From the NCBI RefSeq assembly GCF_030013205.1, contig NZ_CP122648.1: 64,000 bases of DNA; one strand, written 5' to 3'. The number at the start of each line of letters is the position of its first letter. Positions within the stretch are counted from its first letter, which is position 1. This stretch comes from Escherichia coli. GTDB lineage: Bacteria; Pseudomonadota; Gammaproteobacteria; Enterobacterales; Enterobacteriaceae. Below, in pieces: positions 2,983-9,724 of the stretch. Below the pieces are notes generated by a model. It was not told where the DNA came from. It was given only the letters and a program-made list of their open reading frames with translations, and did not search any database. A program made the position numbers and the translations under genes.

Positions 2983-4178
<1,196 letters not shown>

Positions 4179-4213: not shown

Positions 4214-5104
4214 ATGAAAAATATTAAATTACTTGGTTCAGCTATGTTGGTGAGCCTGGCATTGTTCTCGCCAAGTTCGTTGGCAAAAGAGTATAAAATT
4301 GGTGCGTCATTATTAACACAGCAACATCCTTTCTATATCGATCTTGCGAATGCCATGAAAGAAGAGGCAAAAAAAGACAATGTCAATTTAAGTGTCTCTA
4401 TTGCCAATCAGGATTTAAACAAACAACTTTCTGATGTTGAGGATTTTATTACTAAAAAAGTGGATGCCATTATTATCTCTCCGGTCGATTCGAAAGGCGT
4501 CCAGGCGGCGATAATTAAAGCCGATAAGGCCGGTATTCCCGTTATCACCGTCGACGTTGCTGCGGAAGGCGTTCCGGTCGTATCGCACGTTGCGACCGAT
4601 AACTATGCGGGAGGCGTTGAAGCAGGCAAGTTAATGGGCAAACTTTTGAATGGTAAAGGTACTGTAGCCATTATTTCTTATCCGGCACTACAATCGGTGG
4701 TTGCGCGCGTTGATGGTTTTAAGAAAGGGTTAAGCGAGACACCGGATATTAGAATTGTTGCTGAACAGCCTGGTATTACGCGGGCTGAAGCGTTAACGAC
4801 TGCGCAAAACATTATGCAGGCCAACGCCAACCTGAATGGTCTGTTTGGCTTTGGTGATGATGCGGCGTTGGCAGCGGTTATCGCAGCGAAATCTGCGCAT
4901 AACGACAACATCAAAATCATTGGTTTTGACGGCATGAAAGAAGCGCGTGATGCCGTTGACAGTGAAAAAACGTTTGCGGCCGTGATTCGGCAATATCCCG
5001 ATCAAATGGGTGCTAAAGCCATTGATGCCGCTGTTGATCACCTCAATGGTAAACCGGTAGAAAAAATGATCCCGGTACAACCCGGCGTTTATACAGGTAA
5101 ATAG
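4214..5104 (+). CDS. periplasmic sugar-binding protein of an ABC importer (RbsB-like)
   Basis: ORF 4208..5104 trimmed to the ATG at 4214 (GAGGA RBS at 4203-4207); N-terminal signal peptide MKNIKLLGSAMLVSLALFSPSSLA; overall resemblance to ribose-binding protein. Confidence 0.8.
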   Translation: MKNIKLLGSAMLVSLALFSPSSLAKEYKIGASLLTQQHPFYIDLANAMKEEAKKDNVNLSVSIANQDLNKQLSDVEDFITKKVDAIIISPVDSKGVQAAIIKADKAGIPVITVDVAAEGVPVVSHVATDNYAGGVEAGKLMGKLLNGKGTVAIISYPALQSVVARVDGFKKGLSETPDIRIVAEQPGITRAEALTTAQNIMQANANLNGLFGFGDDAALAAVIAAKSAHNDNIKIIGFDGMKEARDAVDSEKTFAAVIRQYPDQMGAKAIDAAVDHLNGKPVEKMIPVQPGVYTGK

Positions 5105-5164
5105 TAAACATCTTCACCTCACAACAAAACGTTATTGGCGTTTTGTTGTGACACCGAGGTCATT

Positions 5165-6664
5165 ATGACGGATGTTATTCTTGATGTTTCGCATATTGCG
5201 AAGACATTTGGTCATGTTCAGGCATTAAAAGATATTACCCTCTCTTTACGTAAAGGGCGGGTGCATACTTTATTAGGCGAGAATGGTGCCGGTAAATCGA
5301 CATTAATGAAAATACTCGCTGGTGTTTATCCGCCAACCCAGGGAACGATAATACTACGTGGTGAAACCATCACCATTAATAATCCGCAGCATTCTCGCCA
5401 GTTAGGGATTGCGATTATTTTTCAGGAACTGAGCCTGAGTAATAATATGACCGTGGCGGAAAATATTTATGCCAATAATGAACCGCGACGTTTTGGCATT
5501 ATTAACGATAAAAAAATGCTCGCAGATTGCCAGAATCTCCTCGCGGAACTGGGCATCCCACTGGATCCGCTGGAAATGGTCGGCAATATGTCGATGGCAC
5601 ATAGGCAACTGGTAGAAATTGCCAAAGCCTTAAGCTATGCAGCGGATGTCGTGATTATGGATGAACCGACATCTTCGCTAAGTGATAATGAAGCAGAGAT
5701 TCTGTTTAACATTATTGAAAAATTAAAGCAGCGAGGCTGTGCGGTTATTTATATCTCTCATCGCATGGATGAAATTATGCGGATTTCAGATGATATTTCG
5801 GTGATCCGCGACGGTGAGTATATCGCCACGCATGAAAAGAAAAACAGTGATATCCAGCATTTGATTGCCCAAATGGTTGGTCGGGAAATGAAAAATATTT
5901 GGCCAGCACGTCTTGGGGAAAAACCGGATGAAAATGTTCCTGCAAAACTGGAAGTAAAAAATCTTTCCCATCCTTCGCTTTTTAAAGAGGTCAGTTTCGC
6001 TGTGCGTCCGGGGGAGGTCCTCGGATTTTTTGGCCTGGTGGGGGCCGGGCGTTCCGATGTGATGAAGGCGCTATTTGGCCTCGTTTCGTATCAGGGGACT
6101 GTGTTGATTGATGGTAAGGAAGTCAGGATCGCTAATCCCAAACAGGCTATTGATCATGGCATTGCTTTTGTGACCGAAAACCGCAAGGAAGAAGGGTTAG
6201 TGCTGATGCACGACGTCAATATGAACACGCACCATGTGGCGTTTCAATATAACGCTTCGCGGATGGGACTCATTAATCACCGACAAGAAGAGGCGAAGAC
6301 GCTGCAATCAATTGCCAGAATGAACACTAAAGTGAGTTCTGTACATCAGGCAGTGGGAGCGCTGAGCGGCGGTAATCAACAGAAAATCGTGTTATCGAAG
6401 TGGCTGGAGAAAACTCCGCGTATTTTATTGCTCGATGAGCCAACGCGCGGAGTGGATGTCGGCGCAAAATTTGAAATCTATAACGTGATACGTCAACTGG
6501 CTGCGGCAGGGACAGCAATTATTCTGGTGTCCTCTGAACTGCCAGAAGTCATGGCACTTAGCGATCGTCTGGTGGTAATGCGTAATAAAACGATTGCCGA
6601 TATTTATTCATGTGAAAATTTAACGCAGACACAGGTAATGACCGCTGCAACAGGAGTACGTTAA
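5165..6664 (+). CDS. sugar ABC transporter ATP-binding protein with two fused ABC domains (RbsA/MglA-like)
   Basis: ORF 5135..6664 trimmed to the ATG at 5165 (GAGGT upstream). First Walker A GENGAGKST; second domain has LSGGNQQK signature and LLLDEPTRGVD Walker B. Confidence 0.85.
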   Translation: MTDVILDVSHIAKTFGHVQALKDITLSLRKGRVHTLLGENGAGKSTLMKILAGVYPPTQGTIILRGETITINNPQHSRQLGIAIIFQELSLSNNMTVAENIYANNEPRRFGIINDKKMLADCQNLLAELGIPLDPLEMVGNMSMAHRQLVEIAKALSYAADVVIMDEPTSSLSDNEAEILFNIIEKLKQRGCAVIYISHRMDEIMRISDDISVIRDGEYIATHEKKNSDIQHLIAQMVGREMKNIWPARLGEKPDENVPAKLEVKNLSHPSLFKEVSFAVRPGEVLGFFGLVGAGRSDVMKALFGLVSYQGTVLIDGKEVRIANPKQAIDHGIAFVTENRKEEGLVLMHDVNMNTHHVAFQYNASRMGLINHRQEEAKTLQSIARMNTKVSSVHQAVGALSGGNQQKIVLSKWLEKTPRILLLDEPTRGVDVGAKFEIYNVIRQLAAAGTAIILVSSELPEVMALSDRLVVMRNKTIADIYSCENLTQTQVMTAATGVR

Positions 6665-7654
6665 ATGACAGAGAAAACTCTTGCCAGTCCGAAACCTTCG
6701 GAAATTCCCATTGCAAATAATTTTAAAAAAGTCTTCAGGCAATATGGCGGTATCCTCAGTGGAATGGTGGTGTTAATCATTCTGTTCAGTTTTATTAATG
6801 ACAGTTTTTTTACCGCCAATAACATTACTAATATTATTCTTCAGGTTTCGATAATTGCAATTACCGCCTATGGAATGACTTATGTACTTTTGCTTGGCGA
6901 TATTGATTTATCGGTTGGTTCAACCATTGCATTGATTGGCACATTTGCTGCGCTTGGGGCTTCATGGGGAATTCCATTTATTTTATTGGTCCCATTATCC
7001 ATTATTGCAGCACTGGCTCTGGGGATGATAAATGGTGGCTTGACGGCTATAGCGGGGATCCCGTCGTTTATTGTCACCGTTGCTACTATGGGGATCTTCC
7101 GTGGTATCGCTTATATAGTGACCGATGGTATGCCCATCATGATTAAAGATGATGCCTTTCTGGCGCTGGGGAATGAAGAATTTCTCTATATACCTATTCC
7201 TATCTGGATATTAATCATCTTATTGCTGATTAACCACTTCATTCTTACTAAAACAACCTTTGGACGAAAAATTTATATCACTGGTGGTAATAAAGAAGCG
7301 GCAGTTTATTCAGGGATAAATGTCACCCGCTTGAAAATTAAAGTCTTTATGATTACAGCCGTGCTGGCAGGTATCAGCGGGATGATCCTCGCGTCACGCC
7401 TCTATTCCGGGCAACCGAATTCCGCGTTGAGCTACGAACTGGATGCTATTGCTGCGGCTGTACTGGGAGGCACCAGCCTGAACGGCGGCTATGGAACCGT
7501 GGTGGGGACGGTGATCGGCGCATTAACCATCGGCGTTATTAATAATGGCATGAACTTAATGAATGTTCCCTATTTTTACCAGATGGTGGTTAAAGGATTA
7601 GTCATTCTTGTAGCCGTTTATTTTGACGTAAGAAATAAAAGAAAACGCAGCTAA
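6665..7654 (+). CDS. sugar ABC transporter permease (RbsC-like, single membrane component)
   Basis: 329-aa highly hydrophobic ORF starting 1 nt after the ATPase stop; consistent with a monosaccharide ABC permease. Confidence 0.85.
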   Translation: MTEKTLASPKPSEIPIANNFKKVFRQYGGILSGMVVLIILFSFINDSFFTANNITNIILQVSIIAITAYGMTYVLLLGDIDLSVGSTIALIGTFAALGASWGIPFILLVPLSIIAALALGMINGGLTAIAGIPSFIVTVATMGIFRGIAYIVTDGMPIMIKDDAFLALGNEEFLYIPIPIWILIILLLINHFILTKTTFGRKIYITGGNKEAAVYSGINVTRLKIKVFMITAVLAGISGMILASRLYSGQPNSALSYELDAIAAAVLGGTSLNGGYGTVVGTVIGALTIGVINNGMNLMNVPYFYQMVVKGLVILVAVYFDVRNKRKRS

Positions 7655-7675: not shown

Positions 7676-8638
7676 ATGAGTAAGGTCTTCACAATTGGAG
7701 AAATTCTGGTTGAAATTATGGCGAGTAAAATCGGCCAGCCATTTGATCAACCAGGTATCTGGAACGGCCCTTATCCCAGTGGCGCACCCGCTATTTTTAT
7801 CGACCAGGTGACACGTCTTGGCGTTCCGTGCGGCATCATTAGCTGTGTGGGGAATGATGGCTTTGGTGATATTAATATACATCGTCTGGCTGCTGACGGT
7901 GTGGATATCAGGGGGATTTCAGTCTTACCTTTGGAAGCTACCGGGAGTGCCTTTGTTACTTATCATAACTCTGGCGATCGCGATTTTATTTTTAATATCA
8001 AGAATGCCGCTTGCGGTAAATTATCGGCGCAGCATGTTGATGAAAATATTCTGAAGGACTGTACCCATTTTCATATTATGGGTTCATCCCTGTTTTCATT
8101 CCATATGGTAGACGCAGTAAAGAAAGCGGTAACCATTGTAAAAGAGAATGGTGGCGTTATTTCTTTTGACCCTAATATTCGGAAAGAGATGCTCGATATT
8201 CCAGAAATGCGTGACGCCCTCCACTTTGTTCTTGAGTTAACAGATATCTATATGCCCAGCGAGGGAGAAGTGTTGCTCTTGTCGCCACACTCGACACCGG
8301 AGCGTGCAATCGCTGGTTTTCTTGAAGAAGGTGTTAAAGAGGTGATTGTGAAGCGCGGCAATCAAGGTGCCAGTTACTACTCCGCGAATGAGCAGTTTCA
8401 TGTTGAGAGCTATCCGGTGGAAGAAGTTGACCCGACTGGTGCGGGAGACTGTTTTGGTGGCGCGTGGATTGCCTGCCGCCAGCTAGGGTTTGACGCCCAT
8501 CGGGCATTACAATATGCCAACGCCTGCGGTGCACTGGCGGTAACCCGACGTGGCCCAATGGAGGGAACGTCTCGCCTTGCGGAAATCGAAGCGTTCATCC
8601 AGCGCCATGACATGTCCATTCGGGAAGCAGCACAATGA
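7676..8638 (+). CDS. PfkB-family carbohydrate kinase, KdgK-like (islet kinase B)
   Basis: 320-aa ORF; N-terminus MSKVFTIGEILVEIMA and GPYPSGAPAIF, C-terminal DPTGAGDCFGG signature; shares long identical stretches with kinase A (e.g. SFDPNIRKEML.IPEM, MGSSLFSF). Confidence 0.85.
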   Translation: MSKVFTIGEILVEIMASKIGQPFDQPGIWNGPYPSGAPAIFIDQVTRLGVPCGIISCVGNDGFGDINIHRLAADGVDIRGISVLPLEATGSAFVTYHNSGDRDFIFNIKNAACGKLSAQHVDENILKDCTHFHIMGSSLFSFHMVDAVKKAVTIVKENGGVISFDPNIRKEMLDIPEMRDALHFVLELTDIYMPSEGEVLLLSPHSTPERAIAGFLEEGVKEVIVKRGNQGASYYSANEQFHVESYPVEEVDPTGAGDCFGGAWIACRQLGFDAHRALQYANACGALAVTRRGPMEGTSRLAEIEAFIQRHDMSIREAAQ

Positions 8639-9681
8639 AAAACGAAATTTGGTCGTGGATTGGCGATCTCTCGCAGGTTGCCGGAATTAAACACTATGAG
8701 TTACGTAGTGGCAGAGCAAAGGGGACAGAAGCGTTTGATGTCCGTACTGGTGCGGGACTGGCATTTACGGTGGTAAAAGATCGCGCGCTGGATATTGCAT
8801 GGGCCAGCTACAAGGACACTGCGCTCTCTTTTATCACCCCCAACGGCATTGTCGCCCCCGCTTTTTTTGAGTCTCATGGCAACGGGTTTTTACGTAGCTT
8901 CTACGCGGGGTTACTGACTACCTGCGGACTTAGCTACATTGGCACGCCCTGTGAGGATGACGGAGAAACGCTGGGGTTACACGGGCGTTTGGCTGCGACT
9001 CCAGCAGAAGAGGTGGGGTATCGCACAGAACGGACCGACGACGGCATTGAATTTGTCATCAATGGCAAAGTACGGGAAACACGATTGTTCGGTGAAAATC
9101 TGACGCTGGAAAGGACCATTCGCTGCCGTTATGGCGAAAATGTGCTGCGCATTGAAGACAAGGTGACTAATCATGGTTTCACCCGCCAGCCGCTGCAAAT
9201 TCTTTATCACTTTAATTACGGCTGGCCTTTATTATCGCCACAGGCAGAAATCTTGCTGTCGGCTAAAAGCGTAACGCCACGAACCCCGCATGCGGCGGAA
9301 GGGTTAACCAGTCATCTGGAGATTTGTACCCCACAGCCCGGTTTTGACGAGCAAGTTTACTATCTCACGTTGAATAGCGACAGTCAGGGGATGAGTAAAG
9401 TTGCGCTGGTGAACGCCGAACTGGGGTGGGGAATTTACGAGAAATTCGACACCATGCAGCTACCCAACTTTATCCAGTGGAAAAATTTAGGCGCGGGTGA
9501 ATATGTTATGGGGCTGGAGGTCAGCAATAGTTTTCCTGACGGTCGTGATAAAGAACGAGCGCAGGGGCGTCTGCCCTTTATAGAGCCAGGGGAAACAAAG
9601 ACATACTGCTTTGAGCTGGGAATTGTTGATGGCGATGCTGAAATTAGCGCGTTGAAAGCGGAAATTGCAAGCTACCGTTAG
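8635..9681 (+). CDS. galactose-mutarotase-like (aldose-1-epimerase superfamily, possibly DUF4432) protein of unknown function
   Basis: 348-aa ORF whose ATG overlaps the kinase B stop (ATGA). Contains a YHFNYGWP motif; the family assignment is from pattern memory and is not verified. Confidence 0.6.
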   Translation: MKNEIWSWIGDLSQVAGIKHYELRSGRAKGTEAFDVRTGAGLAFTVVKDRALDIAWASYKDTALSFITPNGIVAPAFFESHGNGFLRSFYAGLLTTCGLSYIGTPCEDDGETLGLHGRLAATPAEEVGYRTERTDDGIEFVINGKVRETRLFGENLTLERTIRCRYGENVLRIEDKVTNHGFTRQPLQILYHFNYGWPLLSPQAEILLSAKSVTPRTPHAAEGLTSHLEICTPQPGFDEQVYYLTLNSDSQGMSKVALVNAELGWGIYEKFDTMQLPNFIQWKNLGAGEYVMGLEVSNSFPDGRDKERAQGRLPFIEPGETKTYCFELGIVDGDAEISALKAEIASYR

Positions 9682-9697
9682 CTAACGGCAATAAAAA

Positions 9698-9724
9698 CGC
9701 CGGGCAGCGTTAACAGGCCCGGCG
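9698..9724. terminator. GC-rich hairpin in the convergent gap between the islet and accC
   Basis: Inverted repeat CGCCGGGC / GCCCGGCG around a short loop, lying between the stop of the mutarotase-like gene (9681) and the stop of accC (9773). Confidence 0.5.

Follow-up and report, generated by a model that had tools for sequence, protein, structure and literature searches.

The last gene of a D-tagatose operon in Escherichia coli, tagE, encodes a DUF4432 protein that quite probably has mutarotase-type activity of some kind. We analysed it within a 64,000-nucleotide stretch of contig NZ_CP122648.1 (assembly GCF_030013205.1), here called the window, in which tagE occupies positions 8635–9681 on the + strand and runs from an ATG start through 348 codons to its stop. 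Our specific proposal, in which we place evenly divided confidence, is that TagE is a cofactor-independent mutarotase of the DUF4432 branch that acts on free D-tagatose and thereby feeds the furanose, with its free 6-hydroxyl group, to the kinase TagD. Neither the gene nor its operon is new: both are already in the literature and databases, as are the fold class and the question of the gene's role, and tagE is the sole catabolic gene of the operon without a tested role. An earlier sequence-only reading of this DNA had described a 348-residue, beta-rich soluble protein, reminiscent of galactose mutarotase and possibly belonging to DUF4432, that is encoded by the last gene of a transporter operon. 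The open reading frame (ORF) map and the RefSeq annotation agree with the length and position of the gene, and in identical E. coli genomes RefSeq gives the gene at these coordinates the label 'aldose 1-epimerase family protein'.

The family guess was correct. A Pfam search of TagE returned DUF4432 (PF14486) as the sole match and over the full length of the model (E = 3.3e-104, 348.4 bits; residues 29–329 against model positions 2–303/304), and PF14486 was carried by all 120 homologues among the matches listed. An NCBIfam scan of TagE matched no model. The AlphaFold2 model, based on 36 homologues (predicted local distance difference test (pLDDT) score 92.1, predicted template modelling (pTM) score 0.90), is beta-rich and has no membrane segments, in line with the predicted soluble protein. 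Its single domain is a beta-sandwich that can be superposed on enzymes of the GalM type, so that structure comparison with GalM, YphB and YeaD bears out the galactose-mutarotase-like fold. The closest structural relative is the DUF4432 protein 3TY1 (score 43.3), followed by the GalM proteins of Bacillus subtilis and Lactococcus lactis, YphB, YeaD and the yeast hexose-6-phosphate mutarotase (22–27); sugar-binding accessory domains of glycosidases and lyases score no higher than 17. The nearest relatives are thus enzymes and not binding modules. 3TY1 is KPN_04629 of Klebsiella pneumoniae, a structural-genomics entry described as a 'hypothetical aldose 1-epimerase'. It is the only solved structure related to TagE by sequence (E = 5e-33), shares only 26–27% identity with it and belongs to another subfamily. 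A DUF4432 profile searched against PDB sequences with E values up to 10 likewise found 3TY1 alone.

Three residues stand out as candidates for catalysis when DUF4432 is aligned with GalM by hhalign. His116 (LGLHGR; codon 8980–8982, + strand) is the candidate equivalent of E. coli GalM H104 (NQLHGG). His192, the candidate equivalent of GalM H175 (TNHVYFNL), lies in the YHFNYGWP motif (residues 191–198; 9205–9228, + strand), which the sequence-only reading had singled out and which is present in the translation within the segment LQILYHFNYGWPLLSP (residues 188–203). Glu295 (GLEVSNSFPDG; codon 9517–9519, + strand) is the candidate catalytic base and would correspond to GalM E309 (ALESEFLPDSPN). 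Among 115 DUF4432 homologues, H116 is invariant in at least 97%, H192, N194, G196 and P198 in 99–100%, and E295 in 100%. In a non-significant hhalign alignment, H192 and E295 also pair with YphB H148 and E253, and in the similarly non-significant GalM alignment the FDEQ segment of TagE (D238/E239) sits roughly at GYDH of GalM (D243). TagE has no obvious cofactor or metal motif. From this pattern we infer a catalytic role for H116, H192 and E295, three of the few residues that DUF4432 keeps invariant, which the alignment suggests are the counterparts of the catalytic His/His/Glu of GalM.

tagE is a real, functional gene under strong purifying selection and not a chance ORF, because it is present across E. 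coli, has a low ratio of non-synonymous to synonymous substitution rates (dN/dS) and has homologues whose alignment begins at residue 2. It was matched in 1,421 of 5,426 complete E. coli genomes, and 1,419 of the 5,426 contain 80% or more of the island that carries it. Comparison with an E. coli allele of 95% identity gave a dN/dS of 0.056, and comparison with the Enterobacter orthologue gave 0.061. The tagE of E. coli Nissle 1917 (EcN; ECOLIN_RS18670, HW372_RS02470) is the same gene in the same yhdT–accC island and gene order; other E. coli alleles are 95–100% identical in DNA and differ only allelically, and pig-associated E. coli strains carry exactly the allele found in the window. Beyond E. 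coli, the order tagYABCDE–accC also occurs in Superficieibacter, Klebsiella spallanzanii and an Enterobacter species, making four genera in all.

The gene is closely tied to the tagatose kinase gene. Read directly from the sequence and from the ends of the ORFs, an ATGA overlap at 8635–8638 (+ strand) joins the tagE start (ATG, 8635–8637) to the tagD stop (TGA, 8636–8638); the overlap with the stop of what had been called kinase B is therefore genuine, as the kinase ORF ends at 8638. A GGGAAG hexamer at 8622–8627 (+ strand), within the tagD coding sequence and 7 nucleotides 5′ of the tagE ATG, resembles a Shine–Dalgarno sequence and may act as one. A 94-residue antisense ORF across the tagD/tagE junction (8410–8694, − strand) was rejected as a by-product of the conserved coding strand. 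As had been claimed, tagE is the final gene of its operon: on its 3′ side there is only a GC-rich hairpin (9696–9723) shared with the convergent accC. A terminator-like site is predicted inside this hairpin on the − strand (9711–9696), and the hairpin is likely a shared terminator that marks the operon end and that the + strand operon would use as well.

This operon is the published D-tagatose cluster of EcN, whose six genes encode an aldolase, a binding protein, an ATPase, a permease, a kinase and an 'aldose 1-epimerase' (PMC9720028). The six genes are induced more than 40-fold on tagatose, and the operon is needed for tagatose growth in Nissle and sufficient for it in K-12, B and W strains (PMC9720028). 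Growth also requires host pfkA, and deletion of the EcN tagD orthologue abolishes it (PMC9720028). The names tagK–tagR and tagY–tagABC–tagD–tagE were given in a 2025 paper, in which tagE is a "putative aldose 1-epimerase" (PMC12226905). The eight-gene order in the window from yhdT to accC (kinase–DeoR regulator, and divergently aldolase–binding protein–ATPase–permease–kinase–DUF4432) agrees with the Ha 2022 cluster, a match based on the ORF map, the family assignments and the annotated region of an identical genome.

Why might such an operon carry a mutarotase? Ketohexoses such as tagatose are mainly pyranoses in water, according to Angyal's nuclear magnetic resonance compilations; a literature search for published percentages of the tagatose ring forms found no values. 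Because O6 closes the ring of a 2-ketohexopyranose, it cannot be phosphorylated there, and a 6-kinase is restricted to furanose or open-chain tagatose. A precedent for such an accessory step is the ribose operon (rbsDACBK), in which RbsD turns imported ribose pyranose into the furanose whose terminal hydroxyl the kinase needs; FucU, the L-fucose mutarotase, does a comparable job for fucose. TagABC and TagD resemble RbsBAC and RbsK of this operon. TagE itself differs from RbsD and FucU in fold and family, and searches of Pfam, PDB and fold space gave no match between TagE and the RbsD/FucU family; we propose it as a functional analogue. A PfkB fructose 6-kinase that is related to TagD (98 bits) binds beta-D-fructofuranose with only O6 exposed (PMC6240065). 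Because a 6-kinase needs the furanose or open-chain form, the operon is RbsBAC/RbsK-like and the ribose operon uses RbsD, we propose that TagE opens the ring of tagatopyranose.

In the mechanism that we envisage, the TagABC importer would deliver free D-tagatose, mostly as the pyranose. Glu295 would take the proton from the anomeric hydroxyl, as in GalM, and His192, aided by His116, would protonate the ring oxygen, whereupon the hemiketal ring would open and re-close in another form. TagE would in this way speed pyranose-to-furanose and alpha/beta interconversion and keep the furanose pool filled for the 6-kinase TagD, after which flux would pass through PfkA and then the TagY aldolase. The expected effect is a higher rate rather than an essential function. 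Both the substrate and the pyranose-to-furanose direction are what we infer from this setting, and that free tagatose is the substrate seems to us neither more nor less probable than that it is not.

The genomic contexts of DUF4432 relatives point to a similar niche. We assembled 87 loci, of which 7 came from exact look-ups of proteins and 80 from scanning species-representative genomes, and clustered the ORFs within 5 kb of the DUF4432 gene across all of them. In the 83 non-enterobacterial loci (41–56% identity), the DUF4432 gene always lies on the same strand within a sugar operon. Its neighbours there include a mannosidase of glycoside hydrolase family 38 (GH38; 16 of 83 loci), an FGGY kinase and a member of the mannitol-dehydrogenase family (15 each), a lyxose/mannose isomerase (14), a PfkB kinase of 400 residues (11), an ATP-binding cassette (ABC) ATPase (10), a periplasmic binding protein and a GH92 mannosidase (9 each), a short-chain dehydrogenase/reductase (SDR; 8) and a zinc-dependent alcohol dehydrogenase (Zn-ADH; 7). 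A GFO/IDH oxidoreductase, a class II aldolase and a fucose-isomerase-like protein each occur in 4 loci (the aldolase in 8 of all 87), and a TagD-like PfkB kinase in 3. Antisense ORFs of 150–500 residues in the DUF4432 genes, which clustered in 22 loci, were discarded as artefacts that arise from conservation of the coding strand.

Several arrangements recur. At least 12 Bacteroidota genomes (loci L002, L031, L032, L034, L037, L042–L044, L049, L051, L057 and L067) carry a cassette of GH38 and/or GH92 alpha-mannosidase, DUF4432, lyxose/mannose isomerase, 400-residue PfkB kinase and mannitol-dehydrogenase-family gene. It looks like a route from mannosides to fructose 6-phosphate in which DUF4432 stands between sugar release and isomerisation. 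Other typical cassettes read importer–DUF4432–SDR–lactonase and fucose-isomerase-like–DUF4432–class II aldolase–FGGY kinase. One Eubacteriales genome has the order importer–DUF4432–PfkB, with the kinase 36% identical to TagD and its gene 4 nucleotides from that of DUF4432. To judge from these neighbourhoods, the common niche of DUF4432 follows immediately on the release or import of a sugar and precedes an anomer- or ring-form-specific enzyme acting on the free sugar. GalM, RbsD, FucU and RhaM hold the same niche. A comparable layout exists in K-12, where the cryptic yphFEDCB cluster (NC_000913.3, 2673816–2679367; L093) encodes an ABC importer, a Zn-dehydrogenase and, last, the PF01263 mutarotase YphB, much like tagABC–D–E.

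A number of observations weigh against tagatose ring-form conversion by TagE. Judged by sequence and profile, TagE is not a member of PF01263, the family of GalM, YeaD, YihR and YphB. A 36-sequence DUF4432 alignment gave no match to the single E. coli GalM sequence, and global hhalign of 115 DUF4432 against 123 GalM-family sequences produced a meaningless alignment. The local hhalign comparison of the same profiles, from which the candidate His/His/Glu set derives, makes chemical sense but was non-significant (probability 0.6%), which makes it a weak base for the residue assignment. Bridging through a 92-sequence profile of the YphB family, which is closer in structure, brought no gain in significance (probability 0.2%), whereas the control comparison of YphB with GalM reached 99.1%. 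The known members of PF01263, including GalM, YphB, YeaD and YihR, have aldopyranoses or aldose 6-phosphates as substrates; the tag operon, by contrast, handles a ketohexose, and aldoses feature in many contexts of the DUF4432 family. A literature search on DUF4432, PF14486, 3TY1, KPN_04629 and tagatose mutarotase found no characterised family member, and we know of no mutarotase of the superfamily that acts on a ketohexose or catalyses pyranose–furanose conversion. Spontaneous pyranose–furanose exchange of ketoses is fairly fast, so the benefit of TagE may be small. Tagatose clusters of alpha- and betaproteobacteria share the importer and kinase and lack DUF4432, with a tagatose-6-phosphate 4-epimerase there instead (Ha 2022, PMC9720028); a TagD-type kinase would therefore not generally need a pyranase. 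Finally, the published deletions include no single knockout of tagE or of the aldolase gene (PMC9720028).

Chief among the alternatives, although in our estimate unlikely, is that TagE is an anomerase whose substrate is a phosphorylated pathway intermediate, with tagatose 6-phosphate as the likeliest candidate. It would then supply the anomer used by PfkA, or else prepare tagatose 1,6-bisphosphate for TagY by opening its ring. YeaD and yeast Ymr099c, which act on glucose 6-phosphate, provide a parallel. The position of tagE after the kinase gene fits this idea, as do the rhizobial clusters, which carry a tagatose-6-phosphate epimerase at that position and no DUF4432; the contexts of the family, by contrast, are those of free sugars. 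In Sinorhizobium meliloti and Agrobacterium, the protein that is also named TagE is this 4-epimerase, a GatZ/KbaZ-like enzyme encoded at the same post-kinase position in homologous importer–kinase clusters. It is not homologous to E. coli TagE and is described as 'highly divergent' (Ha 2022, PMC9720028); E. coli TagE showed no GatZ/KbaZ homology in the Pfam search, which matched only DUF4432, or in NCBIfam, which gave no match. The routes differ as well, leading to fructose 6-phosphate in rhizobia and to tagatose 1,6-bisphosphate with an aldolase in E. coli. The shared position could nevertheless mean that the E. coli protein performs different chemistry on a mutarotase scaffold, for example by replacing the 4-epimerase and giving fructose 6-phosphate. 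The family is uncharacterised, and the pfkA dependence leaves both routes possible because the fructose 6-phosphate route also needs PfkA. We nonetheless regard this as very unlikely: C4 epimerisation usually requires NAD or aldolase-type metal chemistry, the invariant residues fit the acid/base set of a mutarotase in a protein with no obvious cofactor or metal site, flux to fructose 6-phosphate would leave the dedicated tagatose-bisphosphate aldolase encoded by the first operon gene without a purpose, and the varied contexts are more in keeping with an accessory step of general use than with a single specific conversion. The published route from tagatose 6-phosphate to tagatose 1,6-bisphosphate rests on the growth loss of a pfkA mutant (PMC9720028), a loss that conversion of tagatose 6-phosphate to fructose 6-phosphate would also predict.

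TagE might also be a general aldose 1-epimerase for another sugar taken up by the same importer, such as an aldose related to tagatose, and would then either play no part in tagatose catabolism or give the operon a second, unrecognised substrate. Many relatives adjoin aldose-specific enzymes, among them a lyxose/mannose isomerase, an aldose 1-dehydrogenase-like SDR or GFO/IDH enzyme together with a lactonase, and GH65, and published work has not addressed whether tagatose growth requires tagE. Base composition adds a hint: tagE has a G+C content of 0.508 and 0.527 at third codon positions (GC3), compared with 0.42–0.485 and 0.42–0.46, respectively, in the five upstream genes tagYABCD, so that it may have joined the operon from a different source and had a separate history. 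Such a role is nevertheless quite unlikely for a gene that is co-induced more than 40-fold by tagatose, is translationally coupled to the tagatose kinase gene and has been kept with the operon in four genera at a dN/dS of about 0.06, in an operon that encodes no aldose-processing enzyme. Least probable of all, and in our view highly unlikely, is a non-catalytic TagE that binds sugar or a partner, for instance as a stabilising subunit for TagY or for the kinase TagD. This idea draws on GatY and KbaY, which need GatZ and KbaZ for full activity while the tag operon lacks such a partner, on the class II aldolases found beside DUF4432 in some loci (8 of 87, 4 of them non-enterobacterial), and on the ATGA coupling, which suggests that expression is matched with that of TagD. 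Against it, most DUF4432 loci lack a class II aldolase, the candidate His/His/Glu set is invariant across the family, and the nearest structural relatives are enzymes.

Should TagE indeed be a ketose mutarotase, the tagatose pathway would be completed, a first function would be assigned to a widespread DUF whose crystal structure is already available, and engineered pathways for tagatose and other rare sugars would gain a simple means to raise flux. In its broadest form, which we advance tentatively and regard as somewhat more doubtful than probable, the proposal is that TagE would be the first enzyme dedicated to converting the ring forms of a ketohexose, a 'D-tagatose pyranase/mutarotase'. 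DUF4432 would then be a second mutarotase lineage that sequence comparison fails to reveal and that provides the right ring form or anomer to the kinases, isomerases and dehydrogenases of sugar operons in Bacteroidota, Bacillota, Planctomycetota and other phyla. The advance would be incremental rather than conceptual, since sugar operons with an accessory mutarotase gene are a familiar theme. D-tagatose is a commercial low-calorie sweetener fermented by gut bacteria. The island is found in most E. coli of phylogroup B2, including uropathogenic and adherent-invasive strains and the probiotic Nissle 1917 (PMC9720028), and is under development as an inducible expression system (PMC12226905).

The island itself is an accessory segment of approximately 8.5 kb in the E. 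coli chromosome, located between yhdT/panF and accBC, and its G+C content is below that of its flanks. The first gene of the operon, tagY (3324–4178, + strand), encodes a class II tagatose-1,6-bisphosphate aldolase by its NCBIfam matches (GatY subfamily, 529.7 bits; TIGR01858, 477.6 bits). It is followed by tagABC (4214–7654, + strand), which encodes an RbsBAC-like ABC importer consisting of a binding protein, an ATPase and a permease; the top NCBIfam matches are RbsB, XylG/AraG/RbsA and AraH/RbsC, in agreement with RefSeq and Ha 2022. tagD (7676–8638, + strand) encodes a PfkB-family D-tagatose kinase, as indicated by the NCBIfam TagKinase model and by the knockout of the EcN orthologue. Its TagKinase score of 413.9 bits falls just below the cutoff of 420, which accounts for the generic RefSeq name 'sugar kinase'. 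TagD is essentially identical over its full length to PDB entries 3IQ0 and 3K9E (phmmer, E = 1.7e-217). Both were deposited as 'putative ribokinase II', so the E. coli tagatose kinase already has a structure, filed under a name that says little about it.

Divergently transcribed are tagR (2152–2982, − strand), which encodes a DeoR regulator, and tagK (1185–2120, − strand), which encodes a second PfkB kinase; both assignments follow RefSeq and NCBIfam, and the names come from PMC12226905. In the mechanical ORF list, tagK extends to 2195 and overlaps tagR, and RefSeq places its start at 2120. The best NCBIfam match of TagK is also TagKinase, at 346 bits and below the cutoff. TagK is 51% identical to TagD, is induced approximately twofold by tagatose and does not substitute for TagD (Ha 2022, PMC9720028).

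A 493-residue TagD–TagE 'fusion' in an NCBI E. coli record (P0017) was rejected as a natural fusion protein. An in-frame internal deletion joins TagD at residue ~300 (...RRGPMEGTSRL) to TagE at residue ~157 (TLERTIRC...); the affected genes correspond to approximately 7676–9681 of the window, and the deletion, present in one isolate, wrecks both.

Among the distant relatives, a further cassette in Blautia and other Eubacteriales (L076, L083, L088 and L091) comprises a binding protein, an ABC ATPase, a DeoC-like aldolase, an FGGY kinase, DUF4432, two DeoC-like aldolases, another FGGY kinase and a GntR regulator. It represents an uncharacterised sugar pathway in which the kinase and aldolase genes are duplicated, and two of the loci, L088 and L091, additionally encode a TagD-like PfkB kinase.

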